The notes under the pieces are model-generated. The model was not told where the DNA came from. It made no database searches and worked only from the letters and a program-made list of their open reading frames with translations. 64,000 nucleotides of DNA. Origin: Candidatus Omnitrophota bacterium. GTDB taxonomy: Bacteria > Omnitrophota > Gorgyraeia > Zapsychrales > Zapsychraceae. The position numbers were made by a program, and so were the translations under genes. The number at the start of each line of letters is the position of its first letter. The stretch's first letter is position 1. The stretch spans positions 58,520 through 122,519 of the forward strand of contig JANQMA010000011.1 of NCBI GenBank assembly GCA_028280285.1, written 5' to 3'. Positions 1,767 through 44,565 of this stretch are shown here, piece after piece.

Positions 1767-1767
1767 T

Positions 1768-2754: not shown

Positions 2755-2796
2755 TGGTACTCCTAACCGGTTAAAATCTTTAATTGTTTTTTGATA

Positions 2797-3570: not shown

Positions 3571-3579
3571 AATAGTATC

Positions 3580-4704: not shown

Positions 4705-4779
4705 GATTAAGTGTTTCTGAAATGTGTATGGTGCACTTTATTATGAAATACATGGAGAAGAAGAACGCTTCAGATGTGT

Positions 4780-6732: not shown

Positions 6733-6861
6733 AATTTTCCTCGAATATAATAAATATTAATTAGAAATATTAAACCTGAATATCTATCTTGATCTGATTA
6801 GTAATTATAGCACAGGCTATTATAGACTCAACTTATTATGCAATAATTACTTAGAGCCCTA

Positions 6862-7893: not shown

Positions 7894-7912
7894 TTGTTTT
7901 ACCTTTTTTCAA

Positions 7913-13625: not shown

Positions 13626-13631
13626 AATTGT

Positions 13632-14564: not shown

Positions 14565-14579
14565 TCTAACCCCTTCATC

Positions 14580-15872: not shown

Positions 15873-15874
15873 GA

Positions 15875-16639: not shown

Positions 16640-17292
16640 GAGCAACTCATCTTTTCTTTAAAAATTTTGTGGAATAACCGCTGATCACAGGTTTGAAAAG
16701 GGTTATTGCGTTCCGGATGCCACATCGTCGCAAAGATTGGTAATCCCTTTACACCCATGGCCTCAACAATTTCATCTGAAGTTTGTGCCACAACATCCAA
16801 CTGCTTATCGACATCAGATGCTTTAAAACCAAAATGATGGTAGGAGTTCACCCTTATACTTTCAGATTCAAAACATGATTGAAAAGCACCGGGCGTTATA
16901 TCAACCTCGTGTTCTTTGGCGACATGCACATCCGCGTCACATTGGCTTAACTTTCCGCCAAAATAAACATGTAAGAGCTGCAAACCTCGGCAAATACCAT
17001 ATAAAGGCAACTTATTTTCAATGGCGAACTTCAATAATGTTTTCTCTGTTGCGTCACGTACTGGAGAATCTCCCACGCTATCTCCACCGGTTAAAATGAA
17101 CCCGTTTAACGCGTGTGCATTCACATAATCAAGAACCGGCTCTCCAAGATTAGGAATTAAAACCCACTTTTCCCCCTCTAATAAAAAATCAAGGCACGCG
17201 TACCAATCCCGCGCTAAAGCATCTCTTGGTTCGTTATATCCCTCCGCGTTAGATGTTCTTAGCGTAACGCCTATACGTAATTCTTTATTCAT
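16636..17292 (-). CDS. Class I glutamine amidotransferase / gamma-glutamyl hydrolase (Cj1417-like)
   Basis: 218 aa. GATase1 nucleophile elbow LPLYGICRGLQLL, and HPE near the C-terminus. Confidence 0.75.
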   Translation of the reverse strand: MNKELRIGVTLRTSNAEGYNEPRDALARDWYACLDFLLEGEKWVLIPNLGEPVLDYVNAHALNGFILTGGDSVGDSPVRDATEKTLLKFAIENKLPLYGICRGLQLLHVYFGGKLSQCDADVHVAKEHEVDITPGAFQSCFESESIRVNSYHHFGFKASDVDKQLDVVAQTSDEIVEAMGVKGLPIFATMWHPERNNPFQTCDQRLFHKIFKEKMSCS

Positions 17293-19684
17293 AAAGCGGA
17301 TTTAATGCCTTTGCCCCACAATTAAGTTCAACGGTTCCTGATTTAACTAATCTCTCAAAGGTGCCTTCTCCGCATCCAATAGCCGCCAATAATCCAAATT
17401 CCGCGCAACGGATTGCCATATGGGAATTAGCCCCGCCATATTTGGTTATTACACCCGCAATATCTTTTGTAAAAATCCAATCAAATCCAGGATCCGCGTT
17501 TTCGATACAAACAATTTTACCCGTCATATCCGCATTGGCTTTGGTCGCTGAATCAACAAAAATAACCGGCGCGACTATTGATAATGTACCGATAAAATTG
17601 GGCGCGCTGCGATGCAGAGGCAAAACATACATATCTTTTATATCGCGCAAAATATAACAAAATTTAATTTCCTTGGATAACTTAAATTTACTCTTTGCCT
17701 GCTTTATTTCCTTTTTAAAATAAGATTTTTGATCCTCATGTTTGATCGATACAGGACTATTTAATATCGATTCAATTGTCAAATGTGAAATATCTTCCCG
17801 TGACAATCCTATTTGGCCTCCCCACACAGCTAAAGACTCAAGAATATCTGAAATATTTTTGGTAAATACAAACTTCCCGTATTCACGCCCCACAATAGAC
17901 AAACGCATATACTCCAATAAATCGTCTACTGAGAAATGACCGAAATCAGATTCTTTGAGTAAATTTTCTATAGATACACGTTCTTGAGATGTCAGCAAAA
18001 ACTCATCTGTTATGACATGCGCGTGCAAACCATTAGAATGATTAAATAATTGATCCCGGTCAGAGTAACATAACGATGTAATATCATATGTTCCGGGCCG
18101 CAAGTGTCCGTAACGCTTCAGAAAGGATTCCTGTGATTTTATCTCTTTACTAACAGCTTCGATGTCCATAGCCATTTCAGAAGCAACCGTTACAATCGAA
18201 CGTTTAAATAATTTCATGCGCTCAGCGGTGATCGCCCCTCTTTTGACCATTGATCTTAGAAGTGACTCGACAATAAAAGCGTGCCTTGCGATGATCGAAA
18301 ATGGGAACGTACCTAACTCTTTGCATTCATCAATCAAATGTTGAATATGTCCCAATGTTTCCCGTTGCACCTCTTTGTTTTGATCACGTCTGTTTTGACG
18401 CTTGGCCAAATCGTCAATAGAAGTCAGCGCCATACGCAAGGAAGAAGTTTCCGCTAAATTCAAACATTGTTTGGTTAACTTGGATAATGCTGTTTTAAAT
18501 TCCTGATATTCCTGTTTTGTAAAAATATCACCGTATCGCTCATGAAAAGTTTCTTCAAATGAAAAATCAACACACGTTTGCATAACATCAAACTCTACTT
18601 TATCGTGCAGCTCGGGATGTTCGCGTAAGCGGTCTAACCACGCATTAACCATTTTTTCCGCCAAGCCACCAGTAAGGCCCTCTGGCAATAATGAATTAAA
18701 ACTATTTCTCACATCGATATAGGGCCGCCCCATTATTCCGGTCATTAACTCTACATCGGGCAGTGTAGAATACTTCATTTCCTGACGGGCTAACCGCCAT
18801 ACTGTCTGGGTAATTAATTTACGGTACAACGAAAAGGCTAACGGTTTAGGGGTGACACCTATCATCTCTGCCGGATTCCAGTCAGACATGGTTGTTAAAA
18901 TACTTTTTTCTCCAAAAATATTGTCACGTCTTTGGACATATGATTCAATTGTCCTGGTAACATCTGGTAAATTTTCCAAAACCCGCTTTTTAATTCCCTT
19001 TTCCCAGGCAGTAGTCAAACAAATCGGCCGTACTTGAAATAAATACGGTATTTCATTATGTGTGAGTCCAAACTCAATATCTAAGGCGGATTGCTCAGAT
19101 AATAATTTAACTTCTTCAACCAAATCCAAAACACTTTTGATTCGTTTAGACTGGATATACTCCTTCTGGTATTGGTGGTTTATTAAAACTGTTTTATGAA
19201 CACCCGTTCCTCCCGTGACAGAATCCGTTCTCCCTGAAAAATCGTCATAATTGATCACATAGTACGGCGCTCCGTCCTCGAGGTTATACGTCATAACAAC
19301 ACCACTGACCGCAACATCACTAATCATCGGCTGCACCAAAACCTGGTCATCCCCGTGTTCCTGATAGGAAGAAATAACCTTATCAATGGCCTTTGTAATG
19401 TCTGTTTTACTTTGCACATCAATATGTAGACAACTATGAAAAGCCCCGGCCATAGACTGCTCATGCGTATCTTCACATTGCGCACTGCTGCGTACAATTA
19501 GCTCTTTAAAGGAAATAAATTCTTTCTGAATTTGATTTAAAACCGCCTCTGATTGCGAACGCCATTGGGCGACAGTAAAATAATATAGCGGCGCAACCTG
19601 TCCTGTCTTAAGTAATGGCGCGATCCGCTCAAGCGTCTCAGCCTTTGTTCCGAATTTAAATTTTGATTTAGTGATTGAGCCCAT
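17285..19684 (-). CDS. PEP-utilizing / pyruvate-phosphate-dikinase-like kinase (candidate L-glutamine kinase, Cj1418-like)
   Basis: 799 aa. N-terminal PPDK_N ATP-grasp-like domain (LIVRSSAQCED...VLVQPMI...SGVVMTYN). C-terminal phosphohistidine mobile domain (GGANSHMAIRCAEFGLLAAIGCGEG). Confidence 0.75.
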   Translation of the reverse strand: MGSITKSKFKFGTKAETLERIAPLLKTGQVAPLYYFTVAQWRSQSEAVLNQIQKEFISFKELIVRSSAQCEDTHEQSMAGAFHSCLHIDVQSKTDITKAIDKVISSYQEHGDDQVLVQPMISDVAVSGVVMTYNLEDGAPYYVINYDDFSGRTDSVTGGTGVHKTVLINHQYQKEYIQSKRIKSVLDLVEEVKLLSEQSALDIEFGLTHNEIPYLFQVRPICLTTAWEKGIKKRVLENLPDVTRTIESYVQRRDNIFGEKSILTTMSDWNPAEMIGVTPKPLAFSLYRKLITQTVWRLARQEMKYSTLPDVELMTGIMGRPYIDVRNSFNSLLPEGLTGGLAEKMVNAWLDRLREHPELHDKVEFDVMQTCVDFSFEETFHERYGDIFTKQEYQEFKTALSKLTKQCLNLAETSSLRMALTSIDDLAKRQNRRDQNKEVQRETLGHIQHLIDECKELGTFPFSIIARHAFIVESLLRSMVKRGAITAERMKLFKRSIVTVASEMAMDIEAVSKEIKSQESFLKRYGHLRPGTYDITSLCYSDRDQLFNHSNGLHAHVITDEFLLTSQERVSIENLLKESDFGHFSVDDLLEYMRLSIVGREYGKFVFTKNISDILESLAVWGGQIGLSREDISHLTIESILNSPVSIKHEDQKSYFKKEIKQAKSKFKLSKEIKFCYILRDIKDMYVLPLHRSAPNFIGTLSIVAPVIFVDSATKANADMTGKIVCIENADPGFDWIFTKDIAGVITKYGGANSHMAIRCAEFGLLAAIGCGEGTFERLVKSGTVELNCGAKALNPLYE

Positions 19685-19690: not shown

Positions 19691-20758
19691 TTACTTTAAG
19701 ATTTGCGCACTTTCTTCAATTAAACTCCATGTGAGTGGACAACCTCTTTGAATAGACTGCGTTGCCTTTTTTCCTAAAATATCTTTTAAATATTTTGGCG
19801 GTAATCCGTGACCGGGACGAATAGAACGCACATTCTCAGCATTAAACTCTTCGCCTTCCGCTATATCTTTGACGGCAAAAAGAGACCTGGAAAATACCCT
19901 GGATTTTTCACCCTCTTCGGTTAACCGAAACTCTTCTTCTCCCAGGCTTTTTTCAACCTCCCGCACCAATTTAACCATTTCTTTAAATTCCTCTGGCTGC
20001 ATGGAAAAAGCAGAATCCGGCCCTCCCATGCTTCTATCCAAAATAAAATGCTTTTCAATAATACAGGCTCCAAGAGCCACAGCACCGGCGGCCACAGATG
20101 AAGTGAGTGTATGATCGGACAATCCAATCTCCACGCCTAATCTTGATTGCAATGCTTTAATCGCATTAATATTCATCTCTTCCAACGGTGCCGGATACGT
20201 CGATGTACACTTAAGAACCGCAACCTGCTTATTGCCTACTTTGTAACAAGCCGCTAATGCCTCCTCCAAGTCTTCCCAAGTAGCCACACCAGACGACATT
20301 ATGATAGGCTTACCTTTTGAGGCCGTATACTCAATCAACGGAATATCATTGATTTCACATGAAGCAATTTTATATGCCGGTACTCCGGCTGACTCCAAAA
20401 AATCAACAGAAGAATTATCAAATACCGAGGAAAACCCGATCACACCGCAATCTTTCGCATACTCAATTAACTCTTTTTGCCACTCCCAGGGAGTATAGGC
20501 TTCCTTATATAAATCATATAATGTGCGGCCATCCCAAAGCGTACCGTGATTGAGTTTAAAATAATCGGTATCCGCGTCTATTGTGATGGTATCAGGCGTA
20601 TACGTTTGCAATTTAACCGCATCAGCACCGCTATCCGCCATTGCCTTAATCGTCTTCTTAGCCAACTCTTTGTCATGCAAATGATTAGCCGATAATTCAG
20701 CAATAATAAAAGCCGGATACCCCGCTCCAACACTTCTACCTTCTATGTCAAAACTCAT
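19691..20758 (-). CDS. NeuB-family nonulosonic acid synthase (N-acetylneuraminate/pseudaminate/legionaminate synthase type) with C-terminal SAF domain
   Basis: 355 aa. AELSANH, DAVKLQTY and SDHT motifs, plus a SAF-like C-terminus. Confidence 0.85.
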   Translation of the reverse strand: MSFDIEGRSVGAGYPAFIIAELSANHLHDKELAKKTIKAMADSGADAVKLQTYTPDTITIDADTDYFKLNHGTLWDGRTLYDLYKEAYTPWEWQKELIEYAKDCGVIGFSSVFDNSSVDFLESAGVPAYKIASCEINDIPLIEYTASKGKPIIMSSGVATWEDLEEALAACYKVGNKQVAVLKCTSTYPAPLEEMNINAIKALQSRLGVEIGLSDHTLTSSVAAGAVALGACIIEKHFILDRSMGGPDSAFSMQPEEFKEMVKLVREVEKSLGEEEFRLTEEGEKSRVFSRSLFAVKDIAEGEEFNAENVRSIRPGHGLPPKYLKDILGKKATQSIQRGCPLTWSLIEESAQILK

Positions 20759-21442
20759 TTAATTGTCCTTTAAAATAATTGGTAGAATTTTATCCAAAGC
20801 GTTAACAACGTAATCCGCCGGCACAGGATTTGCCTGGCTTTCCGGATAAAACATTCTCTGTCCATTTTGTTCTAATTGAATACTCATCATTCCCATTACT
20901 TTTGGTGCATGAAAATCTTTATAAGGGTTATCGCCGACATATGCGGCCACTTCAGCATCTATATCAAATTCATTTAAAATTTGCTCATAAGGCACCTGCG
21001 AAGGCTTGGCATTCTCTCCTTCTAATTCATCGGTATATACAATACTTTGCATGTGATCTTCTAAACCCAATACCTTTACTTTATTGCGCTGGACGCTCGC
21101 CATTCCGTCAGTAATCAACCCTATCATGCAACTCTTGTTATGCAATTCAGATAAAATTTCTTCGACGCCATCAAATAAATTGATATTTGGCAAATGTGTT
21201 CTATAGGCAGTTACCATCTTTTTTACAAAACGCTCTTGATCCAAATCATGTTGAGCGCATAACACATTAAATACCTTGCCGCGGCCGTTTTGCTCTACAA
21301 TAGAAACCAATTGATCAAATATGCGTTTGTCATCCAATCCACATTCTTTTGTTACAAATTTAGCAACAGCCCGAAAACCGCTTAAAACATAATCGTATTC
21401 GCGATACAATGTGTCGTCTAAATCAAATATAACAGCCTTCAC
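20759..21442 (-). CDS. HAD-superfamily hydrolase
   Basis: 227 aa. MKAVIFDLDDTLY (DxD HAD motif I). GTG start. Confidence 0.7.
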   Translation of the reverse strand: MKAVIFDLDDTLYREYDYVLSGFRAVAKFVTKECGLDDKRIFDQLVSIVEQNGRGKVFNVLCAQHDLDQERFVKKMVTAYRTHLPNINLFDGVEEILSELHNKSCMIGLITDGMASVQRNKVKVLGLEDHMQSIVYTDELEGENAKPSQVPYEQILNEFDIDAEVAAYVGDNPYKDFHAPKVMGMMSIQLEQNGQRMFYPESQANPVPADYVVNALDKILPIILKDN

Positions 21443-22425
21443 AAAACAGCACCCTCTACGACGGAATCACCTTCTATAAAAAAATCATCTGTATAACGCA
21501 GCATCACAACATCTTCTTTATATTGTGATAGATGACCATCAAGTTTTTGACCGGATAATAACTTAATTAAAAACCGGGGCGTATTAACTCCTGCGGCAAA
21601 TCCTAAAGACGCGCCACCGCCAAAACGCGGATTAATTTCTAAAATTTGGATTACTTCACCAACTTTAATACATTGAAATGTCGTATGCCCTATCAAACCT
21701 AACCGCCCGGCTAAGGCAGTCACCTCACTGACCATTTTTTCGTCCTTAACCGTCCGCCCTTTATAAGACTCCCCACTGACAACTTCGATACGCTCTCTTG
21801 GAACAGCAGAAACAACACGCCCTTCAAAATCCGCAAATACATCGATGGTATATTCCGTCCCCTCGATAAACTCCTGGATAACGGCATCGTCTATGTAGCT
21901 TGTAAAAAAATCGAGTTCTTTTTCATTGTTTACCTTAAAAATATTTTCCGATCCGCTACCAAATCTGGATTTAACAATATAGGGAAATTTTAAATCCACC
22001 CCCTGAAGGTCTTTAGATAAATATGTTACCGGAGCATTAAAGCCATTTTCTTTTAAGAAATGAAAAAATAAATGCTTATCATTACAAATATTAACGGCCT
22101 CCGGCGGGGAAACCATTACCTGAATATTCTCTTTTTCAAACAGGGATTTATTTTCAGAGAATATGATCAATTCAGCGTCACGCGTCGGCACAATAAGACT
22201 GATCTTTTCTTTTTTGCATATATCCAAAATGACCGGCAAAAAATCCTTATCGGATGAGCGCGGAACGAGATAATAACGGTCACCGGCAATAAACCCGGCA
22301 CTCAATGGATCAATATCGACCGTGATTACTGACCCGGTGTTTTTTTCTTGTTGTAATGCTCCTAAAAAAGCCTTAACCAGCCATACCTTACGCGAAACAC
22401 TCGTAATTAATACATTGACATCCAT
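21439..22425 (-). CDS. ATP-grasp domain ligase
   Basis: 328 aa. ATP-grasp pattern (KSRFGSGSENIFKV, EINPRFGGG). Confidence 0.6.
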   Translation of the reverse strand: MDVNVLITSVSRKVWLVKAFLGALQQEKNTGSVITVDIDPLSAGFIAGDRYYLVPRSSDKDFLPVILDICKKEKISLIVPTRDAELIIFSENKSLFEKENIQVMVSPPEAVNICNDKHLFFHFLKENGFNAPVTYLSKDLQGVDLKFPYIVKSRFGSGSENIFKVNNEKELDFFTSYIDDAVIQEFIEGTEYTIDVFADFEGRVVSAVPRERIEVVSGESYKGRTVKDEKMVSEVTALAGRLGLIGHTTFQCIKVGEVIQILEINPRFGGGASLGFAAGVNTPRFLIKLLSGQKLDGHLSQYKEDVVMLRYTDDFFIEGDSVVEGAVL

Positions 22426-23015
22426 TATTGTTCCTGCTCTTGTTGCAACATCTCTTTCACTCTATTTTTCGTGCGCACCCAATCTTCTTCTAAGAAATCA
22501 TGGACAAATGAATCACAAAACGCGCCATTAATCACCACATGATCTTTCATAACGCCTCCCTGCTTCATTCCAAACTCTTCCATCACACTTAAAGTAAAAT
22601 GACGTATAGCATATGTTTCACTGTGCAGCTTATGCAGTTTAAGCTCTTCAAATAAATACGTGCACATCATATAAAGAACACTGAGAAAATCTATTCGATA
22701 AACAGGCCGGTCCTGCCTCCTCTTGGGAGAAACCAGAAACGACAACTCTGCCCGTTTATGGTCATAATCTATATTGGTTAAACCACAGTAACCGATAAAT
22801 TCATCATTGTGATCCAGTAAAGAAAATATAACCTGATTCTGATCTTCCTGTATCTTTTTAAACCACCTGTCCTGATCTTCATCGGTCAGTGGTTGTTTTT
22901 GACGAAGAACATCGATTTGCGCGTTCCGCCATTCTTTGAGAGTAGACAAATACTCCCTTTTCATTGATGAAAGACTTCGTCCACAAATAGAATCTATTTT
23001 GCTTTCAACCAGCAT
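22425..23015 (-). CDS. GNAT-family N-acetyltransferase (PseH-like)
   Basis: 196 aa. Acetyl-CoA-binding-like segment IGYCGLTNIDYDHKRAELSFLV. Confidence 0.5.
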   Translation of the reverse strand: MLVESKIDSICGRSLSSMKREYLSTLKEWRNAQIDVLRQKQPLTDEDQDRWFKKIQEDQNQVIFSLLDHNDEFIGYCGLTNIDYDHKRAELSFLVSPKRRQDRPVYRIDFLSVLYMMCTYLFEELKLHKLHSETYAIRHFTLSVMEEFGMKQGGVMKDHVVINGAFCDSFVHDFLEEDWVRTKNRVKEMLQQEQEQ

Positions 23016-23050
23016 AGATTTAAAAAGTTTTGAATGTGTAAAATTAACAA

Positions 23051-23797
23051 TTAGGCCGCTATTTCTGCCGTGTTCGCAATTGTCTGCTGTTGTAGTTTAT
23101 CTAAATAATATTGTGCCAAAAAGAAATCATCCCAATTATCAATTTCAATTGAAAAATAATCATCTTTTTGTATGGTGGGCAAGACCTTCTCACCTAAAAA
23201 GACATGAGCTCTTCTAATCCCTCTTGTATCATAGAGATTTTGGGCTAGCACTGCTGCAACCGAACCATCCAACATATACCTGTCGGGAAATTCTTGTCGC
23301 CTAATAGCTTTAACATCTTTGACAAGAGGTTGTAAAAATCCTTGTTCATCAACCACTTTCATTAACTCAGGAGCTTGTGTAACGGGATGGCAAGTAACAG
23401 ACGCGTGCGCGTCGGAGTGGACGAGCTTTTCCACCACTTCATCAATCAATCCGTCTGCTCTAAAAGGAACATTCGCCTGCATCAAAACGACAATGTCCGT
23501 TTCATAATTTTCTTCCTTCTTTAAAGTCTCAACAACATGAAGCAAGGCCTCCTCAATAGGCGAATCATCTAAAGCCAACTCACTTGGGCGCATAATGATT
23601 TCAACATCATAGTGTTGACGCACGACATCCGCAATTTCTTCACTGTCGGTTGAAACAATAACTTTGTCTAAAGTTTTTGCTTTTTGTGCCGCTTCAATGG
23701 TATGTCCAATAACAGGCTTGCCACCTAAATCTAAGATGTTTTTTGATTTAACTCCCTTAGACCCACCACGCGCAGGTATAACACCAATAATATTCAT
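23051..23797 (-). CDS. Acylneuraminate cytidylyltransferase family (CMP-nonulosonic acid synthetase)
   Basis: 248 aa. MNIIGVIPARGGSKGVKSKN signature. Confidence 0.8.
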   Translation of the reverse strand: MNIIGVIPARGGSKGVKSKNILDLGGKPVIGHTIEAAQKAKTLDKVIVSTDSEEIADVVRQHYDVEIIMRPSELALDDSPIEEALLHVVETLKKEENYETDIVVLMQANVPFRADGLIDEVVEKLVHSDAHASVTCHPVTQAPELMKVVDEQGFLQPLVKDVKAIRRQEFPDRYMLDGSVAAVLAQNLYDTRGIRRAHVFLGEKVLPTIQKDDYFSIEIDNWDDFFLAQYYLDKLQQQTIANTAEIAA

Positions 23798-23809
23798 GCT
23801 TTCCTCTCT

Positions 23810-25543
23810 CTATAAATTCGCTGTAGATGCCCCCCGCACAGCTGTTTCTTTATCTTTTCTTCCCGGATGCCGTTTTGTGTTTTGAGCGCCCAACTCATTT
23901 ATCGCCCACCATGAAAGCTCAACAATCTCTTCATCAGGCAGATCGCTAAAGTTCGTCCTAACGGCGTCGCCTTGTTCGCCTAAACGTAGGAAATATTGTT
24001 CAACCATATCATCATCCGCCGGGGCCACAACGCCGGTGACCGCTTTGGTAATAAGTCCCTTTTCCATGGCCAAGTCCCAGAAACTTGTGCCAGGGTATGC
24101 TGTTACAAAAAAGAACACTTCAGGCTTAAGCCCGATTTCTTTACACACCTCAACCGTTTCGGCAACTGTCTGGCGTGTTTCGCCTGGAGAACCAATCATA
24201 AAGGAACAGTCCGCATACCCGAGAACCCTTTGTGTCTCCCGCACAGCAATTTTGATTTTTTCCTGTGTTTGCCCGGATTTATCAATGCTTTTTAAAATGG
24301 TTGGACTTGCCGTTTCAACACCATAACCTGCCTGACGCATTCCTACCTCACGCCCTAATTCCAGAATATTAGGCCGGCCCTGCTTTTTCGCACGGACGAC
24401 ATCATCCGCAATAATATTGGTCCTGCACGCGCCTCCCCAAGTCACATCAAGCCCTGTTTTTTTACGTTGATTCTTAAGGGCCTCACAAAATTCCATAGCC
24501 CAACGATAATCTGTAAAAAGAAGATCATCTAAGAAATGCATATACCCTGCATCGTATCTGTCATGCAGATATTGCATTTCATCAACAATTTCCTGAGGAG
24601 ATCTTAAACGATACGTTTTACCCAAGTAAGAGGCATAGCAATAATCACATGCCTTTGCCGCATACGGACAACCACGTGAAGCCAAAAGCTCCACCGAGTA
24701 GGTATCACACGTACTCTTTCCGTCACTCCACTTATTTTCCCAGTTTAAATGACCAAGAGGATTCTGTTTATAAATTTCATCAATAGCAAAACGTGAACGA
24801 AGCGGCCACGGCAGTGTATCAAGACCATCCCATCTTGTCTTAAAACCGGTACGCTCGCCATTATTTCTAATTTCCCACTCACCTTTTTTTATTTCATGTT
24901 TATAGACAACGCCGGCACATCCTTCCAGTGAAACACCTTCTTCTAAGCGATGCAAAAGTTCTGATGTTGTCATCTCTCCTTCTTTATTAACGGCGATATC
25001 AATGGGAAGCATTTTGACCATAAATTCCGGCATACAGGAAGAAATACCCCCACCAAGAACAATGGGTATTTCTGGAAATACTTTCTTACAGTAGGTAGTA
25101 ATCTGTTTAATGCGGGCGTACTGCGGTATAATCCCACCAATCATGATCACATCAGGATGATAATGATTAAATTTTTCATCAATTTTCGCCTCAACCCACT
25201 TTGACATCTCCTCCGGGGTTTTATCCATAGGCTCCTTACGCAAAGCATTCAAATCCAGTGTTTCGACATAGTGACCATCCATAGCCGCTACGGAACAGAC
25301 ATAAGCCTGGCCTAAAGGAAATATATTGGGGTAGGACCACTCACGGATCGGCGCATTGATCATAAGGACCTTAAGTCCTTTATTCCGTAGAGGAAAGAGA
25401 CCCTCAGAATCATCTGTTGTAATCCGCGGAGCTTCAGGGAACTCATTCCCGCCTAAGGCATTAAACCGCTGGTAAAAGCGCTCCGGCGCCTTAGGCACAT
25501 TGATATTAACGAACGCGTCATTTTCTTTGGTTTTTGTAGTCAT
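23810..25543 (-). CDS. Cobalamin(B12)-binding radical SAM enzyme (non-canonical Cys spacing)
   Basis: 577 aa. N-terminal B12-binding-like region (KVLMINAPIREWSYPNIFPLGQAYV). Cys cluster GCPYAAKACDYC (CX6CX2C). Confidence 0.7.
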   Translation of the reverse strand: MTTKTKENDAFVNINVPKAPERFYQRFNALGGNEFPEAPRITTDDSEGLFPLRNKGLKVLMINAPIREWSYPNIFPLGQAYVCSVAAMDGHYVETLDLNALRKEPMDKTPEEMSKWVEAKIDEKFNHYHPDVIMIGGIIPQYARIKQITTYCKKVFPEIPIVLGGGISSCMPEFMVKMLPIDIAVNKEGEMTTSELLHRLEEGVSLEGCAGVVYKHEIKKGEWEIRNNGERTGFKTRWDGLDTLPWPLRSRFAIDEIYKQNPLGHLNWENKWSDGKSTCDTYSVELLASRGCPYAAKACDYCYASYLGKTYRLRSPQEIVDEMQYLHDRYDAGYMHFLDDLLFTDYRWAMEFCEALKNQRKKTGLDVTWGGACRTNIIADDVVRAKKQGRPNILELGREVGMRQAGYGVETASPTILKSIDKSGQTQEKIKIAVRETQRVLGYADCSFMIGSPGETRQTVAETVEVCKEIGLKPEVFFFVTAYPGTSFWDLAMEKGLITKAVTGVVAPADDDMVEQYFLRLGEQGDAVRTNFSDLPDEEIVELSWWAINELGAQNTKRHPGRKDKETAVRGASTANL

Positions 25544-25725
25544 TTTGTCCCCCTTTTGCGGGTCTTTAATATGGCAATATTATTACAACTTATTGGCAAA
25601 TATACCAGTTTTTTCTTTAAAAAAAATTGACGTTCAATATTTGAACATTTTAAAAAATTGATCATGATTATTGTTCAATTTATGAACACGATCTACTGTC
25701 TAATTTTAAAAATACACCTACTTTT

Positions 25726-26928
25726 TTAAACAACCACCGCAATAACAGCATCGATAACGCGTTTAATTTCTTCTGCTTTCATAGAAGGAAACAATGGAAT
25801 GGTGAGCGCCGTATCATAATATTTTTCTGCTTCTGGGAAATCACCGCGCTTAAACCCGAACTTGTTTTGATAGTATGGCAATAAATGCAATGGAATATAA
25901 TGCACATGGACACCTATTTGCATTGCCCTGAGCTCTTCAAAGATTTCCCGGCGTGTCTTTTGTACTTTATCAAGATCAATTCTCAACATATACAGATGCC
26001 AGGCGCTTTGACGGTCAGCCTCCTGAAACGGCGTGATTAAAGCTTCAACCGGACTAAACGCTTCATTATATTGTTCGATAATTTCACGACGGCATTCATT
26101 AAACTTATCAAGTTTTCTTAGCTGGCTTAATCCCAGCGAACACTGAATATCGGTAATACGATAATTATAGCCAAGTTCTTGCATCTCATAATACCAGGGC
26201 GCACGATTAGCAAACCGCTTACCGCGATTAAAGGCGTTCTCATTATCAAAGGCCTGCTCTTCTAAAGTCATCGCATCATTGGCATTGGTGATGCCATGCG
26301 TGCGAAACAGCTTTAGCTTTTCATACAATGCTTCATCATTGGTTACAATCATACCGCCTTCCCCCATCGCGACATGCTTAACCGGATGAAACGAAAAAAT
26401 GGTCATATCAGCTAAAGACCCTACCGGTTTTCCCTTATAAGTAGCGCCGATGGCATGCGCGCCATCTTCAATCACAATCAAATTATGCTTCTTGGCAATA
26501 GCATTGATCTCATCCATATCACATGGCTGACCGGTGAAATCGACTGGAATGATCGCTTTCGTTTTTTCAGTAATAACCGCCTCTAACTTTTGAGGATCCA
26601 TACAATAGGTATCCGGACGGATATCACAGAACTTAACATCAGCCCCGAGAAACAACGCGCAATTACCACTCGCCGCAAACGTAATAGGAGCGGTGATGAT
26701 CTCATCGCCTGCTTTCACACCGGCGGCGTAACACGCGCAATGAAGCGCCGCCGTTCCGGTAGCAACGGCAACAGCGTATTTGGCTCCAACCTTTTCGGCC
26801 ACTGCCTTTTCAAACTCGGCAATTTTAGGACCCTGCGTTAACCAGTTACTTTTAAGTGTTTCGATGACAGCATTAATGTCGTCGTCATCGATCGTCTGTT
26901 TGCCGTAAGGAATAAAATCAGTGCTCAT
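25726..26928 (-). CDS. DegT/DnrJ/EryC1/StrS-family PLP-dependent aminotransferase (PseC/LegC-like)
   Basis: 400 aa. FSFHPVKHVAMGEGG PLP-lysine motif. Confidence 0.85.
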   Translation of the reverse strand: MSTDFIPYGKQTIDDDDINAVIETLKSNWLTQGPKIAEFEKAVAEKVGAKYAVAVATGTAALHCACYAAGVKAGDEIITAPITFAASGNCALFLGADVKFCDIRPDTYCMDPQKLEAVITEKTKAIIPVDFTGQPCDMDEINAIAKKHNLIVIEDGAHAIGATYKGKPVGSLADMTIFSFHPVKHVAMGEGGMIVTNDEALYEKLKLFRTHGITNANDAMTLEEQAFDNENAFNRGKRFANRAPWYYEMQELGYNYRITDIQCSLGLSQLRKLDKFNECRREIIEQYNEAFSPVEALITPFQEADRQSAWHLYMLRIDLDKVQKTRREIFEELRAMQIGVHVHYIPLHLLPYYQNKFGFKRGDFPEAEKYYDTALTIPLFPSMKAEEIKRVIDAVIAVVV

Positions 26929-26937
26929 AAAATTTTC

Positions 26938-28374
26938 CTATGAATATTTAAGCGCCTGCAGGGCGCGCACATTACTGAAATGAAGTGAATCCAAGTCCTC
27001 TGTGCTTTTGTTTTCAAATAACTCTTTAAATTCCTGAAGCGCTTCCACAACACTGTGTTTAGCCTTAAACCCAACTACTCTTTCTAACTTTTCGAAACTC
27101 ACCCGGTAATTGCGGGGATCGATCAGGTCACTGTTTCTGATAATTTCCGTTGCGGGAAACACTTGCTTAGTTAGCTCGGCCAGATCATTAATTGTGTGAT
27201 TCTGCGCGTCGCCGCCGACATTAAAAGTTTGCGCGCGCACATCATCGATCGGCGCGTTTAAAACCGCGTTAATCGCCCCGGCAACATCCTTCACATGCAC
27301 ATTGGGTCGCCATTGATTGCCCCCGCCATGCACCTCAATTTTTTTATTTTGATAAGCATTCTTCGCAAAAATATTAACCACTAAATCAAACCGTGGACGA
27401 TAAGACGGCCCGAACACAGTTGCCAAACGTAAAATCGTCGGGGCAAAAAGCGGATTCGGCAGATTACATACCGAAAGGATTGACTCTTCCACAAGCGATT
27501 TAATACGCGCATAAAGAGAAACCGGATTTAAAGCAGACTCTTCGGTTAAAAATTCATCCGGATTTTCGCTCGCGCCATAAACACTGCACGACGACATATA
27601 AACAAACCGGTTAATATTTAAATGTGAGCATAAATGCGCCATGGATGTCACGGCCAGATAGTTGGTCTTAAGCGCTGCCTGCGGGGCCTCCGCACAGGCT
27701 GGATCCCCAACGAGCTCGGCCAAATAAACAACAGCATCGACCCCATCAACCGCGCGGACAATATCATCAATATTAGCCGCGTCACCTTCCATCAGCTCAA
27801 ACCGGTTATTATCAATCCCTTTGAGTGAGTCACCATAATAAATAAATTTATCCAGCACACGCACCGACCAACCGTCATTAAGTAAGACACGCGCCAGCGT
27901 TGAACCAATGTAACCACCTCCACCGACAATCAAGACCGTACGATGATTAGTTGCCATCGGTTCTTGATCTTTAGAAACATAAACAGTCAATGAATCGAGA
28001 TTAATGAGCCCGACAACTTTCTTATCTTTTCTCACAACAGGAGCCATAGCATAACGGAAATAAATATCTCCATAAGCCGCTTTCATGTCCTCCAAGACCT
28101 GATTGACATCTTCTGTTTTTTTCAACTGCTCCTCTTCAATCAAAATCGGTTCATCATTCATAACACGCTTAAGCGTCGTACTTACCGGATGGCCTTGCAA
28201 AATAGCTCTGCGTAAATCCCCTGGAGAGGCCACACCCACCAAACAACCTTGATCATCCACAACGGTGACAATCATCCAATGTTTACCCTCAATATTCTTG
28301 AGCGCATCAAAAATAGTATCCGTTTGACGCAGCTCAATAGGAGGAATTAAGTTTAATTGACCGTTTTTCTTCAT
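26938..28374 (-). CDS. CBS-pair domain fused to NAD-dependent epimerase/dehydratase (SDR)
   Basis: 478 aa. N-terminal tandem CBS-like region, then VLIVGGGGYIGSTLARVL Rossmann motif and an SDR core. Confidence 0.65.
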   Translation of the reverse strand: MKKNGQLNLIPPIELRQTDTIFDALKNIEGKHWMIVTVVDDQGCLVGVASPGDLRRAILQGHPVSTTLKRVMNDEPILIEEEQLKKTEDVNQVLEDMKAAYGDIYFRYAMAPVVRKDKKVVGLINLDSLTVYVSKDQEPMATNHRTVLIVGGGGYIGSTLARVLLNDGWSVRVLDKFIYYGDSLKGIDNNRFELMEGDAANIDDIVRAVDGVDAVVYLAELVGDPACAEAPQAALKTNYLAVTSMAHLCSHLNINRFVYMSSCSVYGASENPDEFLTEESALNPVSLYARIKSLVEESILSVCNLPNPLFAPTILRLATVFGPSYRPRFDLVVNIFAKNAYQNKKIEVHGGGNQWRPNVHVKDVAGAINAVLNAPIDDVRAQTFNVGGDAQNHTINDLAELTKQVFPATEIIRNSDLIDPRNYRVSFEKLERVVGFKAKHSVVEALQEFKELFENKSTEDLDSLHFSNVRALQALKYS

Positions 28375-28385
28375 AAAAAACTCCC

Positions 28386-28829
28386 TTATCTTTCCTCAAC
28401 ACTCCATGGATCCCAGTAATAGGCATCAAAACGGTAGTCATCATCCAGACTTTCCTCGAGTGATGAAGTTGAAAAAAACATGATTTTTGTATCAGATTGT
28501 AATGTCTTAAACCCGTTAGCATACCCTGCCGGTATTTTTAAAACTCCGGGTTTTTTTTCAGTAAGAACAAAACGTGCCACCTCTAAATCTTTCCCCGGAT
28601 TATCCCAATTATCAATTTTGACTGCCGCCACAATCGCTGCACCTGAAACAACATATACATATTTCATTTCATTTTTATGCCCATGCCAGGCACGGATAAA
28701 TTCCGCTCTATGATTGCTGACCGTATAAAACCGGCGGATCGTGCGTAAATCAAAGTCATTGCAAAATTGAATCTGACCGCGGTCATCAACAGCTAATCCT
28801 CCCGCAATTAGTTCTACTTGATCACTCAT
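28386..28829 (-). CDS. Cupin-fold NDP-sugar isomerase/epimerase (FdtA/WxcM C-terminal-like 3,4-ketoisomerase)
   Basis: 147 aa. RAWHGHKNEMKYVYVVSG cupin His motif typical of FdtA/QdtA-like enzymes. Confidence 0.6.
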   Translation of the reverse strand: MSDQVELIAGGLAVDDRGQIQFCNDFDLRTIRRFYTVSNHRAEFIRAWHGHKNEMKYVYVVSGAAIVAAVKIDNWDNPGKDLEVARFVLTEKKPGVLKIPAGYANGFKTLQSDTKIMFFSTSSLEESLDDDYRFDAYYWDPWSVEER

Positions 28830-28853
28830 TAATACATCCTTTCTAAAATTTGC

Positions 28854-29690
28854 TTACGATGCAATATGTGCCCTTAATTTATTGGCAACAGGAACTTCCT
28901 TTTCATGTATCCCTAAAACACCGTCTCCCATCGCGAGCTCAATTTTGCGTACAGCCCCAACCAACCGGCGAAATCCTTCCGGCTCAACCGAAGCAGACTG
29001 ATCAGAGCCATACATCGACCGTGAAAGCGTAATGTGCCGTTCAAGCGAGGTAATCCCCATAGCCGCCGCCGCATAAGATACAGCCAGTCCAACTTCATGC
29101 CCGCTGTAGCCAACAGCGCAGTCATATCTTTGACGCAATGTGTTGATGCAATTTAAATTCGCGTCCGTATCTTCCATCGGATAGGTCGACATGCAGTGCA
29201 TAAGTTCATAAGGACACTTGGCATCCTGGAAAATCTCCACCGCCGCATCGATCATAGCCACATCTGTCATGCCTGTGGAAATAAAGGTATGTCTTCCTTC
29301 GGAGGCCACCTCTTTAAGGAAGTTTTTATCGACAATCATCGCCGAGGCAATCTTGTTATACTTGCAATTATATTGAGCCAAAAACTTTTGGCTTTCTATA
29401 TCCCAGGCGGACGCGAACCAATCAATTCCCTTTTCTTTACAATACCGGTCGACTTCATCATATTCGGCCTTGCCAAACTCGAGCCCTTCTTTTTGTTCGC
29501 GCTGCGTTGTCCCCCAAGGGCTTTCCCGGGGAGAATCAAGCATCTCTTTGGTGTAGACAAGGTCAATGGTCCTTTTTTGAAACTTAACCGCATCAGCTCC
29601 GGCATCTTTGGCCACATCGATCAGCTTCTTTGCGGTTTCAATATCACCATTATGATTAATCCCTATTTCTGCAATGACATAAATGGACAT
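28854..29690 (-). CDS. NeuB-family (ulosonic acid / sugar-phosphate aldolase-type) synthase lacking the SAF domain
   Basis: 278 aa. IAEIGINHNGD and DAVKFQK motifs, no C-terminal SAF extension. Good AGGAG Shine-Dalgarno upstream. Confidence 0.75.
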   Translation of the reverse strand: MSIYVIAEIGINHNGDIETAKKLIDVAKDAGADAVKFQKRTIDLVYTKEMLDSPRESPWGTTQREQKEGLEFGKAEYDEVDRYCKEKGIDWFASAWDIESQKFLAQYNCKYNKIASAMIVDKNFLKEVASEGRHTFISTGMTDVAMIDAAVEIFQDAKCPYELMHCMSTYPMEDTDANLNCINTLRQRYDCAVGYSGHEVGLAVSYAAAAMGITSLERHITLSRSMYGSDQSASVEPEGFRRLVGAVRKIELAMGDGVLGIHEKEVPVANKLRAHIAS

Positions 29691-29698
29691 AACATCTC

Positions 29699-30181
29699 CT
29701 AGTTCTTTTTGATTAATAAATTGTCATATAGTTTACGGATAACCCCATCCCCGCCATTTTGGGGAACAATCACTTGCGCTATATCCAAAATTGTTTGGCT
29801 AGCATCTTGCGGCGCAACAGGATAACCGACAGCTTTCATCACTTCAAGATCATTAATGTCGTTACCGACATACAAAACATCATTAAGATCAACACCGCGT
29901 TCTTGGCAATATTTTGTAAGAACGCTTAATTTGTCTTCAACACCGTGAATCACATCAATGGCCAGCTTATTGGCACGGACCTTTACAACCGCATTGGTTT
30001 CTGTCGAAATGATGACTTGGGGTTTGTCCATCTTCTTAATCAGTGAAATCGCCAGTCCGTCACCACGATGACAAAAAACCGCCTCGGTGCCGTTCTGGTC
30101 AACCAAAACCCGGTTATCCGTTAACACACCGTCAAAATCGTAAACAATCAACTCTATTTTTTCTAAATCTAACTCTTTCAT
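29699..30181 (-). CDS. KdsC-like HAD phosphatase (ulosonic acid-phosphate phosphatase)
   Basis: 160 aa. IVYDFDGVLTDN motif I and overall KdsC/YrbI family pattern. Confidence 0.8.
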   Translation of the reverse strand: MKELDLEKIELIVYDFDGVLTDNRVLVDQNGTEAVFCHRGDGLAISLIKKMDKPQVIISTETNAVVKVRANKLAIDVIHGVEDKLSVLTKYCQERGVDLNDVLYVGNDINDLEVMKAVGYPVAPQDASQTILDIAQVIVPQNGGDGVIRKLYDNLLIKKN

Positions 30182-30186
30182 AACAA

Positions 30187-30909
30187 CTATAGTTTATGCG
30201 CATAAAATGTCATGATATTCCCCGGAAAAGGCGGCGACATTTCTGTATTATCAAACAATCGCATGAGATTTTCTTTTGTAAAATGACGTGTCTCAAAAAA
30301 AGGATAATCGACATGCTCTACTTCAAACCCATGATCACGTAACAAACGGAACACAGACTCATTAGAAAACAGACTGATATGTGTCTGATCGTGCAGCATC
30401 CTGAAATGCTCACCAAAGTGTCTGGCCAAATGGCAATCAAAATCCGGCGTTCCCAACACAATTTTTCCACCTGGCTTCATCACACGATTAATTTCCTTAA
30501 TAATAGATACAGGGTCCTCTAAATGTTCCAAAACGTGCATCAGTACAACGACATCAAAAGAATCACTTTCATATTTGGCATCATGTAATGGCCCTATAAA
30601 TATCTCAGCCCACTTCTTGGCTTGCTCGCCGGCAAATTTTGAAATTTCGACCCCATGTTTTTCCCAGTCATCATTAATCCCGGAAAGAAAAAAGCCAATC
30701 CCACAACCCACATCCAATATCCGCCCTGGGGGTAAGGCATTAATGTAGGCTAAATCATTTTTGACATCTTCCAGAATCCTGTCCCTCTCGTCCGCACGTT
30801 TGCGCTCCATTCCGTCAGGATCAATTGTCACTTTCCAATAATTTTCTTCAAAGACAGACTCTTTGCTTGTTTCTCTTCTAACAAAATATTTATCCGGGCT
30901 TACAAACAT
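30187..30909 (-). CDS. Class I SAM-dependent methyltransferase
   Basis: 240 aa. ILDVGCGIGFF SAM-binding motif. Confidence 0.65.
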   Translation of the reverse strand: MFVSPDKYFVRRETSKESVFEENYWKVTIDPDGMERKRADERDRILEDVKNDLAYINALPPGRILDVGCGIGFFLSGINDDWEKHGVEISKFAGEQAKKWAEIFIGPLHDAKYESDSFDVVVLMHVLEHLEDPVSIIKEINRVMKPGGKIVLGTPDFDCHLARHFGEHFRMLHDQTHISLFSNESVFRLLRDHGFEVEHVDYPFFETRHFTKENLMRLFDNTEMSPPFPGNIMTFYAHKL

Positions 30910-30919
30910 TTATACTCCT

Positions 30920-31609
30920 TTACCTAACATTGTTTTCCATTAATGCTGTTAATTTTTGAAACAGCTCAACATCTTGGGGCTCATCAATTTGAAATGAGTT
31001 TAGTGCCCCCATTTGATAGTGTGTAATCTTACCACCTAAGCGGTTATTTTGCTCCATTAAAATTTCCGGTCTGAAAATATAGATAGAACCATTTTCTATA
31101 AAATCTTCAGGGCAATCTTGCCTGCGCATACGCGCGTTCTTATCATAATTGAGCGGCTCAATGCCTCCGTTATTTTCCCTCCATAAAAATCCATGCACCA
31201 GACATGACGAAAACAGTGAATCGGCATTCTCTTCTATAATATGGTCAATCGCATTGGCTATATCATTTTCTTCTCTCAGCGGAGATGTTGCCTGCAAGAA
31301 AACGACCCAATCGGGGCTGTAATCTTCTTTAGCCCGGTAAACTTCAAGTGTGTGTTTAAGCGCAGATTCCGATGTTGCAAAATCATCACTCAATTCAGCC
31401 GGACGATCAATCACTTCTGCCCCCGCCTTAATAGAAACATTTTTAATATCCTCATTATCCGTTGAAACGACAACGCGATTAATCCTGGCCGTAGTTAGCG
31501 CCTGCTCAATAGAATGCACAATGAGCGGCTTACCGTTAAAAGGAATCAAATTTTTGCGTGGAATCCCTTTTGATCCACCGCGCGCTGGAATAATAGCCAT
31601 TATTTCCAT
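30920..31609 (-). CDS. Acylneuraminate/KDO-type cytidylyltransferase (second CMP-ulosonic acid synthetase)
   Basis: MEIMAIIPARGGSKGIPRKN signature. Start is ambiguous: in-frame ATGs at 31600, 31609 and 31618, and the ORF-track GTG at 31639 would overlap the upstream gene. Confidence 0.8.
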   Translation of the reverse strand: MEIMAIIPARGGSKGIPRKNLIPFNGKPLIVHSIEQALTTARINRVVVSTDNEDIKNVSIKAGAEVIDRPAELSDDFATSESALKHTLEVYRAKEDYSPDWVVFLQATSPLREENDIANAIDHIIEENADSLFSSCLVHGFLWRENNGGIEPLNYDKNARMRRQDCPEDFIENGSIYIFRPEILMEQNNRLGGKITHYQMGALNSFQIDEPQDVELFQKLTALMENNVR

Positions 31610-31619
31610 AGACAGCATC

Positions 31620-37697: not shown

Positions 37698-37704
37698 TAA
37701 AACT

Positions 37705-38583: not shown

Positions 38584-38591
38584 ATTATTTT

Positions 38592-43946: not shown

Positions 43947-43977
43947 AATCTCCTCACTTTACTTTTGGTTAAACGAT

Positions 43978-44472: not shown

Positions 44473-44565
44473 GTATCCTATCCTTTATGAAATTCTTAAA
44501 ATTAATCCAAGACAACATGCTATCACCTAACGTTTACAATTGCCACGGGTATCTTATCTTTACAA

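Follow-up and report, generated by a model that had tools for sequence, protein, structure and literature searches.

Organization of the nonulosonic acid locus

In a 64,000-nucleotide stretch of a Candidatus Omnitrophota genome (contig JANQMA010000011.1, positions 58,520 to 122,519; hereafter the window), a run of genes at positions 19691-31609 encodes enzymes of nonulosonic acid biosynthesis. An earlier note on this DNA had divided the run into two routes, each ending in activation with cytidine monophosphate (CMP), the second of which it assigned to acids of the 3-deoxy-D-glycero-D-galacto-nonulosonate (Kdn) or 3-deoxy-D-manno-octulosonate (Kdo) type. Our Pfam and NCBIfam scans bore out the gene list and coordinates of that note, with every gene on the minus strand (Table 1); the scans covered the open reading frames (ORFs) at 223-43017 and 45957-47324, and those at 43512-45908 and beyond 47553 lay outside them. 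The run forms the upstream part, about half, of a single large surface-glycan locus, which begins with a MarR_EPS regulator and an ABC exporter, reaches approximately position 223, and comprises 33 co-directional minus-strand ORFs (from approximately 35854 down to 223, ~35 kb). Genes in this block overlap or are spaced by 0-40 bp, the sole sizeable gap of the 19691-31609 region, whose genes otherwise overlap or lie 0-35 bp apart, being 182 bp (25544-25725). Within the scanned stretch, the top sigma-70-like match is at approximately 35948-35920, just upstream of the MarR_EPS gene, and the promoter-like matches counted in that stretch were not above shuffled expectation.

The region can be divided into two modules. 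Module B (30920-28854) holds a cytidylyltransferase (CT2), a class I S-adenosylmethionine (SAM) methyltransferase, a haloacid dehalogenase (HAD) phosphatase, and a NeuB-family synthase without a SAF domain. Module A (28829-19691) holds a cupin, a CBS pair fused to an extended short-chain dehydrogenase/reductase (CBS-SDR), a PseC-type aminotransferase, a B12-binding radical SAM enzyme, a second cytidylyltransferase (CT1), a GNAT N-acyltransferase, an ATP-grasp ligase, a HAD-IA hydrolase, and a PseI synthase. The likely start of CT2 is the ATG at 31609 (229 aa), with the ORF reaching a GTG at 31639. Two labels in the earlier note required revision. The cupin, described there as FdtA-like, scored 19.9 bits against FdtA, below the cut-off of 23, and passed the cut-off of dTDP_sugar_isom, so that it is better described as RmlC-like. 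Among the "two methyltransferases", the class I enzyme of module B stands, while the second is the B12-binding radical SAM protein, in which methylation is presumed. For comparison, we collected the neighborhoods of the SAF-less NeuB at 80 loci (L002-L081; one genome per species, with flanks of up to 10 kb on each side) and six contexts of the CBS-SDR protein, including L088, L089, L091, L092, and L093.

Table 1. Features of the glycan locus and its surroundings, in positions of the window
Feature	Position	Strand	Family or domain match
CT2, predicted CMP-ulosonate synthetase, Kdn-type module	30920..31639	-	CTP_transf_3 109 bits
Class I SAM methyltransferase	30187..30909	-	Methyltransf_23 94 bits
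C0-type HAD phosphatase, KdsC/Kdn-9-phosphate phosphatase family, 160 aa	29699..30181	-	NF058599 top NCBIfam match
SAF-less NeuB-family synthase, 278 aa	28854..29690	-	NeuB domain alone
RmlC-like cupin	28386..28829	-	dTDP_sugar_isom 34 bits (cut-off 27)
CBS-pair and extended SDR fusion (CBS-SDR), 478 aa	26938..28374	-	CBS and Epimerase domains
PseC-type nucleotide-4-keto-sugar aminotransferase (DegT family)	25726..26928	-	TIGR03588 515 bits (cut-off 423.5)
B12-binding radical SAM enzyme, presumed C-methyltransferase	23810..25543	-	B12-binding and Radical_SAM domains
CT1, second cytidylyltransferase	23051..23797	-	CTP_transf_3 99 bits
Short GNAT N-acyltransferase, weakly PseH-like	22425..23015	-	Acetyltransf_4 52 bits
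ATP-grasp ligase, PylC-like N-domain	21439..22425	-	ATP-grasp_3 86 bits, PylC-like_N 73 bits
HAD-IA hydrolase	20759..21442	-	HAD_2 91 bits
PseI synthase, 355 aa	19691..20758	-	TIGR03586 476 bits (cut-off 340); NeuB 292 bits, SAF 51 bits (Pfam)
Divergent "PFTS-motif" polysaccharide biosynthesis protein, 635 aa	31620..33527	-	PF27878 (Logan annotation)
MsbA/PglK/HepA-like half-ABC exporter	33475..35343	-	ABC_membrane and ABC_tran; HepA 367 bits, MsbA 342 bits, both below cut-off
MarR-family exopolysaccharide (EPS)-associated regulator, first gene of the co-directional block	35294..35854	-	TIGR04176 48.7 bits
Phosphoramidate-donor homologs (Cj1418, Cj1417, Cj1416, and Cj1415 types), sulfotransferase-fold protein, and methyltransferase	13077..19684	-	
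Class I methyltransferase of the same block	13632..14564	-	
Sulfotransferase-fold protein, first	14580..15890	-	
Sulfotransferase-fold protein, second	12078..13067	-	
Protein without a family match, ~635 aa	10119..12038	-	
CDP-hexose branch	223..8845	-	
PMT_2 glycosyltransferase, methyltransferase, and extended SDR	36114..39644		

Module B resembles a Kdn-type pathway

The synthases of the two modules are of different kinds. That of module A exceeds the cut-off of the PseI equivalog model (Table 1), aligns with Campylobacter jejuni PseI (8H2C) at 318 bits, and has homologs of 50-51% identity in L088 and L091 that also exceed the TIGR03586 cut-off. That of module B is 31% identical to the window PseI and reaches neither the NeuB nor the PseI equivalog cut-off. 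As the earlier note had described, it consists of the NeuB domain alone; the missing SAF domain is genuine, since the next gene begins 24 bp downstream, and a length of ~282 aa is typical across the family. Its closest characterized homolog is the Kdn-9-phosphate (Kdn-9-P) synthetase of Prymnesium parvum, a likewise SAF-less protein of 312 aa that is specific for mannose-6-phosphate (Man-6-P) and inactive on N-acetylmannosamine-6-phosphate (ManNAc-6-P), arabinose-5-phosphate, and free sugars (PMC6200933, from the supplement of which the characterized P. parvum reference sequences were drawn). This enzyme is 37% identical to the SAF-less NeuB (139 bits) versus 25% to the window PseI (61 bits). 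Between their second strand and helix, the two SAF-less proteins share a KFQKR...LEF loop, which 6NCS, C. jejuni PseI, and Neisseria meningitidis NeuB lack or carry in a different form. In a neighbor-joining tree of 33 sequences and 276 columns, with the P. parvum enzyme as the one characterized Kdn-9-P reference and BT1714 and human NANS not among the sequences, the SAF-less NeuB and its relatives grouped with the P. parvum synthetase, opposite to PseI, N. meningitidis NeuB, and 6NCS, in 100/100 bootstraps. The two synthases thus fall in different clades and, given their mutual identity and the PseI score of one of them, are not redundant paralogs. The SAF-less NeuB is predicted to condense phosphoenolpyruvate (PEP) with a sugar-6-phosphate in the manner of a Kdn-9-P synthase.

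The adjoining phosphatase had been called KdsC-like in the earlier note, which left room for a generic HAD enzyme. Its matches in the PDB are solely C0-type HADs of the KdsC and Kdn-9-P phosphatase (Kdn9PP) type, namely 3MMZ (133 bits), BT1713 of Bacteroides thetaiotaomicron (3E81; 85 bits, 34% identity), and KdsC enzymes (51-75 bits), and it scored 99.8 bits against TIGR01670, whose cut-off is 106.95. At the positions of E56, R64, and K67 in BT1713, the window phosphatase carries Glu, Arg, and Lys (STE..R..K in the window, TGE..R..K in BT1713), where Escherichia coli KdsC (MG1655) carries Arg, Asp, and Thr (TGR..D..T). In BT1713 these three are reportedly specificity residues that bind the nonulosonate (Lu et al., 2009). 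The Glu is also found at the E56 position in 35/35 of the phosphatases that adjoin a SAF-less NeuB in other genomes. These features set the protein apart from generic HADs and suggest a ulosonate-9-phosphate phosphatase. They also separate the two halves of the "Kdn or Kdo-type" assignment: the Kdn half is favored by the clade shared with the Kdn-9-P synthetase and by the phosphatase residues, while a Kdo-type module B was rejected, as the synthase is a NeuB and not a KdsA, the phosphatase has Thr-Glu in place of the Gly-Arg of KdsC, and the similarity of CT2 to KdsB is N-terminal only (residues 10-121, ≤44 bits).

Along its full length, CT2 is 36% identical to the P. parvum CMP-Kdn synthetase (126 bits, versus 58 bits for CT1), and it shares 35% identity with CT1. 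Its top PDB matches are mouse CMP-N-acetylneuraminic acid (CMP-Neu5Ac) synthetase (1QWJ, 112 bits), a Vibrio enzyme (6IFD, 110 bits), and PpNeuA (9T4Z, 109 bits). Together with NeuB_NnaB as the top NCBIfam match of the SAF-less NeuB (250 bits), the mouse enzyme raises the alternative of an animal-like path through ManNAc-6-P and Neu5Ac-9-phosphate, by which module B would yield Neu5Ac or a different N-acyl neuraminic acid, as has been proposed for Neu5Ac in Leptospira (PMC3438082). We regard this alternative as unlikely: the scanned ORFs of the window included no Epimerase_2/NeuC, ManNAc kinase, or NanE, the Epimerase_2 genes of L091-L093 pair with a SAF-containing rather than a SAF-less NeuB, and the closest characterized homolog of the synthase is strictly specific for Man-6-P. 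The lack of a gene for ManNAc-6-P supply among the scanned ORFs also makes Man-6-P the most likely substrate of the SAF-less NeuB. The methyltransferase embedded in the module has homologs (40-52% identity) near the SAF-less NeuB at five of the 80 loci (L030, L042, L044, L045, and L047) and probably O-methylates the ulosonic acid; O-methyl-Kdn is known from a Sinorhizobium capsule.

The SAF-less NeuB belongs to a family of more than 8000 proteins (E<1e-20), with the nearest genomes being metagenome-assembled genomes of Deltaproteobacteria and Syntrophorhabdaceae and that of Desulfobacter curvatus. Identity to the window protein reaches 79% in Deltaproteobacteria, 77% in Syntrophorhabdaceae, 74% in Omnitrophota, 73% in Spirochaetes, approximately 66% in Pelagibacter and Prochlorococcus, 62-67% in Lachnospiraceae, 56-60% in Nitrosopumilaceae, and 49-61% in Dehalococcoidia. 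For a surface-glycan gene this conservation is unusual, at 72-80% to proteins of Omnitrophota, Spirochaetes, Alphaproteobacteria, and Thiotrichales, and would fit strong constraint on the protein, a module often transferred horizontally, or the two together.

Across the 80 loci, a KdsC-like phosphatase (~44/80) and CTP_transf_3 (~46/80) are frequent neighbors of the SAF-less NeuB. Further partners include a GmhA-like SIS isomerase that does not reach the gmhA cut-offs and in some cases forms one protein with the phosphatase (37/80), an AP_endonuc_2 xylose-isomerase-like TIM barrel (33/80), one to three adh_short SDRs (41/80), and a pair formed by a class-III aminotransferase and a glyoxalase-fold protein (approximately 12 loci). 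The TIM-barrel domain type has been found fused to a NeuB in Leptospira (Ricaldi et al., PMC3438082). One or more of these partners also occur with several of the closest relatives, of 72-79% identity (L002, L006, L007, and L088), and the combination looks like a widespread, uncharacterized ulosonic acid pathway. The synthase of the window might accordingly use another sugar phosphate, such as a heptose-7-phosphate made by the GmhA-like isomerase, or its product might be further oxidized and aminated; in either case the window would make an uncharacterized ulosonic acid rather than Kdn. This seems improbable to us for the window itself, where none of the GmhA-like, TIM-barrel, adh_short SDR, class-III aminotransferase, or glyoxalase-fold partners is present and where a synthase, phosphatase, methyltransferase, and cytidylyltransferase by themselves would suit a substrate from central metabolism; a GmhA paralog could equally convert fructose-6-phosphate to Man-6-P.

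The simplest reading of module B is thus a Kdn-type sequence. The SAF-less NeuB would condense PEP with a hexose-6-phosphate, the Kdn9PP-like HAD would take off the 9-phosphate, and CT2 would form the CMP-sugar, so that Man-6-P would be converted to Kdn-9-P, Kdn, and CMP-Kdn, with O-methylation by the embedded enzyme.

Module A resembles a pseudaminic acid pathway with a different entry

In module A, the aminotransferase exceeds the cut-off of the PseC equivalog model, as the synthase does for PseI (Table 1). The canonical first enzyme, PseB (TIGR03589), was not detected among the scanned ORFs, the top score being 28-38 bits against a cut-off of 408. In its place stand the cupin and the CBS-SDR, which the earlier note had already placed with the first set. 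This placement is supported by a conserved trio of cupin, CBS-SDR, and PseC-like aminotransferase, found in five of the six fetched contexts (L088, L089, L091, L092, and L093) with identities to the window proteins of 58-72%, 50-62%, and 67-71%, respectively. In all five loci the cupin gene lies directly upstream of the CBS-SDR gene and the aminotransferase gene follows. The trio is always accompanied by SAF-containing NeuB and CTP_transf_3 genes, and none of these loci has a canonical PseB. In L088 (15593-17062) and L091 (18479-19939), the trio is joined by a PseG-PseH fusion that matches the full-length PseG model at 104-123 bits, by WbuX and HisH/HisF-like genes for acetamidino groups, and by a PseI above the cut-off. 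With PseB absent, these companions argue that the trio substitutes for PseB and feeds a recognizable pseudaminic acid pathway.

The CBS-SDR family comprises proteins of ~475 aa from many phyla. Its active-site strand reads SSCSVYG and is followed by YxxxK, with Cys conserved in 115/120 and Ser in 120/120 family members; at these positions the 4,6-dehydratases of the window itself read STSEVYG and TSDKCY. A canonical 4,6-dehydratase of the LegB, RmlB, or PseB-like type is disfavored for the CBS-SDR, because the Asp/Glu pair is missing. The best PDB match is 6VO6/6VO8 (133 bits), of which we take 6VO6 to be the C. jejuni C4 dehydrogenase Cj1427. A metagenome scan with the CBS-SDR returned four weak matches, all to the SDR part only. 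The sole PDB match of the cupin is the GDP-4-keto-heptose 3-epimerase 8DAK (E = 0.002). Together, the CBS-SDR as a nucleotide-sugar C4 oxidase and the cupin as a 4-keto-sugar C5 (or C3/C5) epimerase probably make up the PseB substitute.

The remaining genes of module A diverge more from their models. CT1 is more divergent than CT2; its top NCBIfam match is PseF (102 bits, cut-off 205.7), and it is 59% identical to a homolog in L091. It is probably the CMP-synthetase for the pseudaminic-type sugar. The GNAT scored 45.5 bits against the PseH model (TIGR03585, cut-off 93.1). The NCBIfam matches of the B12-binding radical SAM enzyme are all far below cut-off, and a homolog of 69% identity occupies the same position in L091. 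The ATP-grasp ligase (PRK12767, 289 bits, cut-off 390), which had no homolog at the 80 loci L002-L081, probably forms an amide bond on either the sugar or the N-acyl group that it carries; the ligase gene overlaps by 4 bp that of the HAD-IA hydrolase, whose NCBIfam matches are all below cut-off. Compared with L088 and L091, the window thus has a short unrelated GNAT, the ATP-grasp ligase, and the HAD-IA hydrolase in place of the PseG-PseH fusion and the WbuX set, which fits a different N-acyl or amide decoration. In C. jejuni, Cj1438C and Cj1435 carry out an amidation with a phospho-amine and a subsequent dephosphorylation (PMC11800397). The ATP-grasp/HAD pair may be likened to them by analogy of function only, as the opening residues of Cj1438C and Cj1435 look unlike the window proteins.

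In the proposed order of steps, the CBS-SDR would oxidize C4 of a nucleotide-activated N-acetylhexosamine (HexNAc), the RmlC-like cupin would invert C5, and PseC would aminate C4. Decoration would then fall to the GNAT, to the ATP-grasp ligase with its HAD partner, and to the B12-binding radical SAM enzyme; PseI would condense the sugar with PEP, and CT1 would activate it.

Two probable CMP-activated nonulosonic acids from one locus

Family membership by homology to characterized enzymes, clade placement, residues at aligned positions, and synteny together support the two distinct routes proposed in the earlier note. We consider it probable that the locus makes two different CMP-activated nonulosonic acids, a Kdn-type acid from module B and a pseudaminic-type 5,7-diamino acid from module A. 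The substrates, the products, the order of the steps, and the replacement of PseG by other window genes are predictions derived from these comparisons.

Several observations weigh against this assignment. In module B, an identity of 37% to a eukaryotic enzyme leaves the substrate specificity of the synthase unfixed, and the Kdn-9-P phosphatase model NF058599, although the top NCBIfam match of the phosphatase, scored 113 bits against a cut-off of 180. Since partner enzymes accompany the SAF-less NeuB in most other genomes, its usual product may not be plain Kdn. Both cytidylyltransferases fall below the cut-offs of the PseF/NeuA-type models, and CT1 scores lower than CT2 against the PseF model itself (102 versus 131 bits). 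In module A, no scanned protein matched the PseG model (TIGR03590), so that the removal of the nucleotide before PseI is unaccounted for within the 64 kb. The CBS-SDR also lacks the Asp/Glu pair of the dehydratases, and the origin of a 6-deoxy sugar, the canonical substrate of PseC and PseI, is not explained.

The gaps in module A lend themselves to a further explanation, in which redundancy or partial decay of the two sets leaves a single functional nonulosonic acid, module A being unable to run without PseB and PseG. Besides the absence of PseB among the scanned ORFs, a tblastn search of the whole 64-kb window with the PseG-PseH fusions of L088 and L091 found nothing (the short GNAT also went undetected by it), and the GNAT and CT1 score below the PseH and PseF cut-offs. 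Against decay, every ORF is intact and the genes are tightly packed, and the PseB-less trio recurs at 50-72% identity in five loci of different lineages, a recurrence that speaks for selection to keep a functional alternative; PseG may also be encoded on another part of the 131-kb contig or beyond it in the genome. We therefore hold decay or redundancy to be very improbable and retain the interpretation of two working routes.

The earlier note had considered two CMP-ulosonic acids from one operon to be unusual, and this did not hold up. L088, L091, L092, and L093 each have at least two NeuB homologs and two to three cytidylyltransferases. L088, on a 349-kb contig, keeps near-synteny with the window across both modules, with a short NeuB of 76% identity, three cytidylyltransferases, the trio, and PseI. 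L091 combines the trio route with a legionaminic-type set (CBS-nucleotidyltransferase, DegT, PglD-like acetyltransferase, NeuB/SAF, and Epimerase_2), and L092 and L093 combine the trio with NeuB/Epimerase_2 sets. The flagellin glycosylation island of C. jejuni likewise encodes both pseudaminic and legionaminic acid pathways. A precedent from Leptospira dates from 2012 (PMC3438082).

Phosphoramidate-type block and other neighboring genes

Directly downstream of PseI lies a 799-aa PPDK-like protein that scored 915 bits against PRK05849 (cut-off 501), presumably the Cj1418 family. The same block (13077-19684) encodes a C26 amidohydrolase (GATase) whose top match is gamma-glutamyl-CDP-amidate hydrolase (95.7 bits, cut-off 250), an NTP_transf_3 nucleotidyltransferase with LicC as its top PDB match (44 bits), and an APS-kinase-like protein, which reached none of the APS-kinase cut-offs. 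The four domain types of the Cj1415-Cj1418 set are thus all present in one block, as judged without direct comparison with the Campylobacter sequences. In Campylobacter, Cj1415-Cj1418 make 3'-phospho-CDP-amidate, the presumed phosphoramidate donor (PMC11800397). The block would correspond to a homolog set of the Campylobacter donor pathway for O-methyl phosphoramidate (MeOPN). It also contains a class I methyltransferase, and the two sulfotransferase-fold proteins in and next to it have intact P-loops of the type that binds the 5'-phosphosulfate of 3'-phosphoadenosine 5'-phosphosulfate (PAPS); these proteins could be phosphoramidyl transferases that use 3'-phospho-CDP-amidate. In L088 the gene order PseI, sulfotransferase, and Cj1418-like protein is kept. 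What appears less ordinary at this locus is the recurrent PseB-less entry into a pseudaminic-type pathway and its linkage to a phosphoramidate pathway outside Campylobacter.

These two features can be combined in a bolder proposal, to which we give a low probability. Cys and Ser replace Asp and Glu in the CBS-SDR, whose nearest solved relative is taken to be a C4 dehydrogenase; the enzyme may thus oxidize C4 without removal of the 6-hydroxyl. The cupin and CBS-SDR would then form a new PseB-independent entry that leads to an undescribed 9-hydroxy 5,7-diamino nonulosonic acid. Its primary hydroxyl would be a possible acceptor for the neighboring phosphoramidate/sulfate machinery, with the sulfotransferase-fold enzymes using 3'-phospho-CDP-amidate as a PAPS analog.

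The protein encoded between CT2 and the ABC exporter is a speculative candidate for a transferase or polymerase acting on the CMP-sugar. Among 50 relatives, 33 match TIGR04417 and three weakly match the BFO_1060 glycosyltransferase family, and a homolog of 24% identity adjoins a cytidylyltransferase in L091. A profile search against the PDB found nothing, a word-based homolog search returned only the protein itself, and a single-sequence AlphaFold model was unusable (mean predicted local distance difference test, pLDDT, 41.7). This protein and the one at 10119-12038, each ~635 aa, have no Pfam match in the local library, and neither the Pfam nor the NCBIfam scans assigned the latter to a family. 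We rejected the idea that they are paralogs, as they share no similarity, and likewise set aside a Cj1421/Cj1422-like identity for them, as judged without Campylobacter sequences.

At the downstream end of the locus, a CDP-hexose branch comprises a glucose-1-phosphate cytidylyltransferase and a CDP-glucose 4,6-dehydratase, both of which exceed the cut-offs of their equivalog models, together with an RmlC-like cupin, another DegT protein, a radical SAM protein, a second 4,6-dehydratase, and a formyltransferase, which suggests a formamido-dideoxyhexose as its product. On the other side and divergent from the locus, a 527-aa PMT_2 (GT-C type) membrane glycosyltransferase is followed by a minus-strand methyltransferase and an extended SDR, and this group may provide a transfer step for the finished glycan. 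The GC skew is negative in all 2-kb bins of the window and nearly every long ORF is on the minus strand, which would fit a position of the window on a single replichore, its genes being co-oriented with replication.

Comparison with known systems

Nonulosonic acids shape the recognition of bacterial surfaces by phages, predators, and immune systems, and their diversity is largely unmapped in uncultured environmental bacteria. The Kdn-type module appears as a portable unit, occurring in lineages as far apart as SAR11, Prochlorococcus, gut Lachnospiraceae, and ammonia-oxidizing archaea, in which it is not known to have been characterized biochemically. The recurrent PseB-less route offers testable candidate enzymes, and candidate sulfotransferase-fold transferases sit beside the phosphoramidate pathway homologs.

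Module B is closest to the Kdn pathway of B. thetaiotaomicron (BT1713-BT1715) and P. parvum, with which it shares the three enzyme types at identities of 34-37%, the SAF-less synthase with the KFQKR...LEF loop of Prymnesium, and the phosphatase Glu/Arg/Lys of BT1713. It differs from that pathway in its embedded methyltransferase and in lying within a much larger locus, alongside a second nonulosonic acid route.

Module A resembles the canonical PseB-C-H-G-I-F pathway of Helicobacter pylori and C. jejuni in its PseC and PseI, both above cut-off, with the GNAT and a CTP_transf_3 protein predicted to fill the PseH and PseF roles. It departs from this pathway in the cupin and CBS-SDR that stand in for PseB, in the absence of PseG from the window, and in the additional ATP-grasp, HAD, and B12-binding radical SAM proteins. 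A precedent for a PseB step shared by two proteins is the seven-enzyme pseudaminic acid pathway of Bacillus thuringiensis, in which Pen and Pal reportedly split the PseB reaction (work attributed to Li et al., 2015, in the Journal of Biological Chemistry). The CBS-SDR matches Pal (6BWL), to which it is distantly related as an SDR, at 52.6 bits. The window has a cupin epimerase and a CBS-fused SDR rather than two SDRs, and no Pen-like dehydratase. The combination of CBS-SDR and cupin follows the same logic as C. jejuni Cj1427 (C4 dehydrogenase) and the cupin Cj1430 (C3/C5 epimerase), in which C4 is oxidized without dehydration and epimerization follows (PMC10680097). In the window, by contrast, the next enzyme is a PseC-type aminotransferase and not a C4 reductase, the SDR carries an extra CBS pair, and the sugar is presumably a UDP-HexNAc rather than a GDP-heptose.

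For the locus as a whole, a parallel is the Leptospira interrogans cluster, which combines a legionaminic route with a second one, proposed to be phosphorylated and "animal-like" (Ricaldi et al. 2012, PMC3438082). Both clusters would pair a di-N-acyl route with a phosphorylated one. In Leptospira, however, the synthase is fused to an endonuclease-like domain, where the window has a separate KdsC-type HAD, and the di-N-acyl acid is legionaminic rather than pseudaminic. The adjacent block resembles the C. jejuni MeOPN genes Cj1415-Cj1418 in that all four domain types lie in a single block; it differs in that no homolog of the Cj1421/Cj1422 transferases was identified and in the two sulfotransferase-fold proteins interleaved with it.

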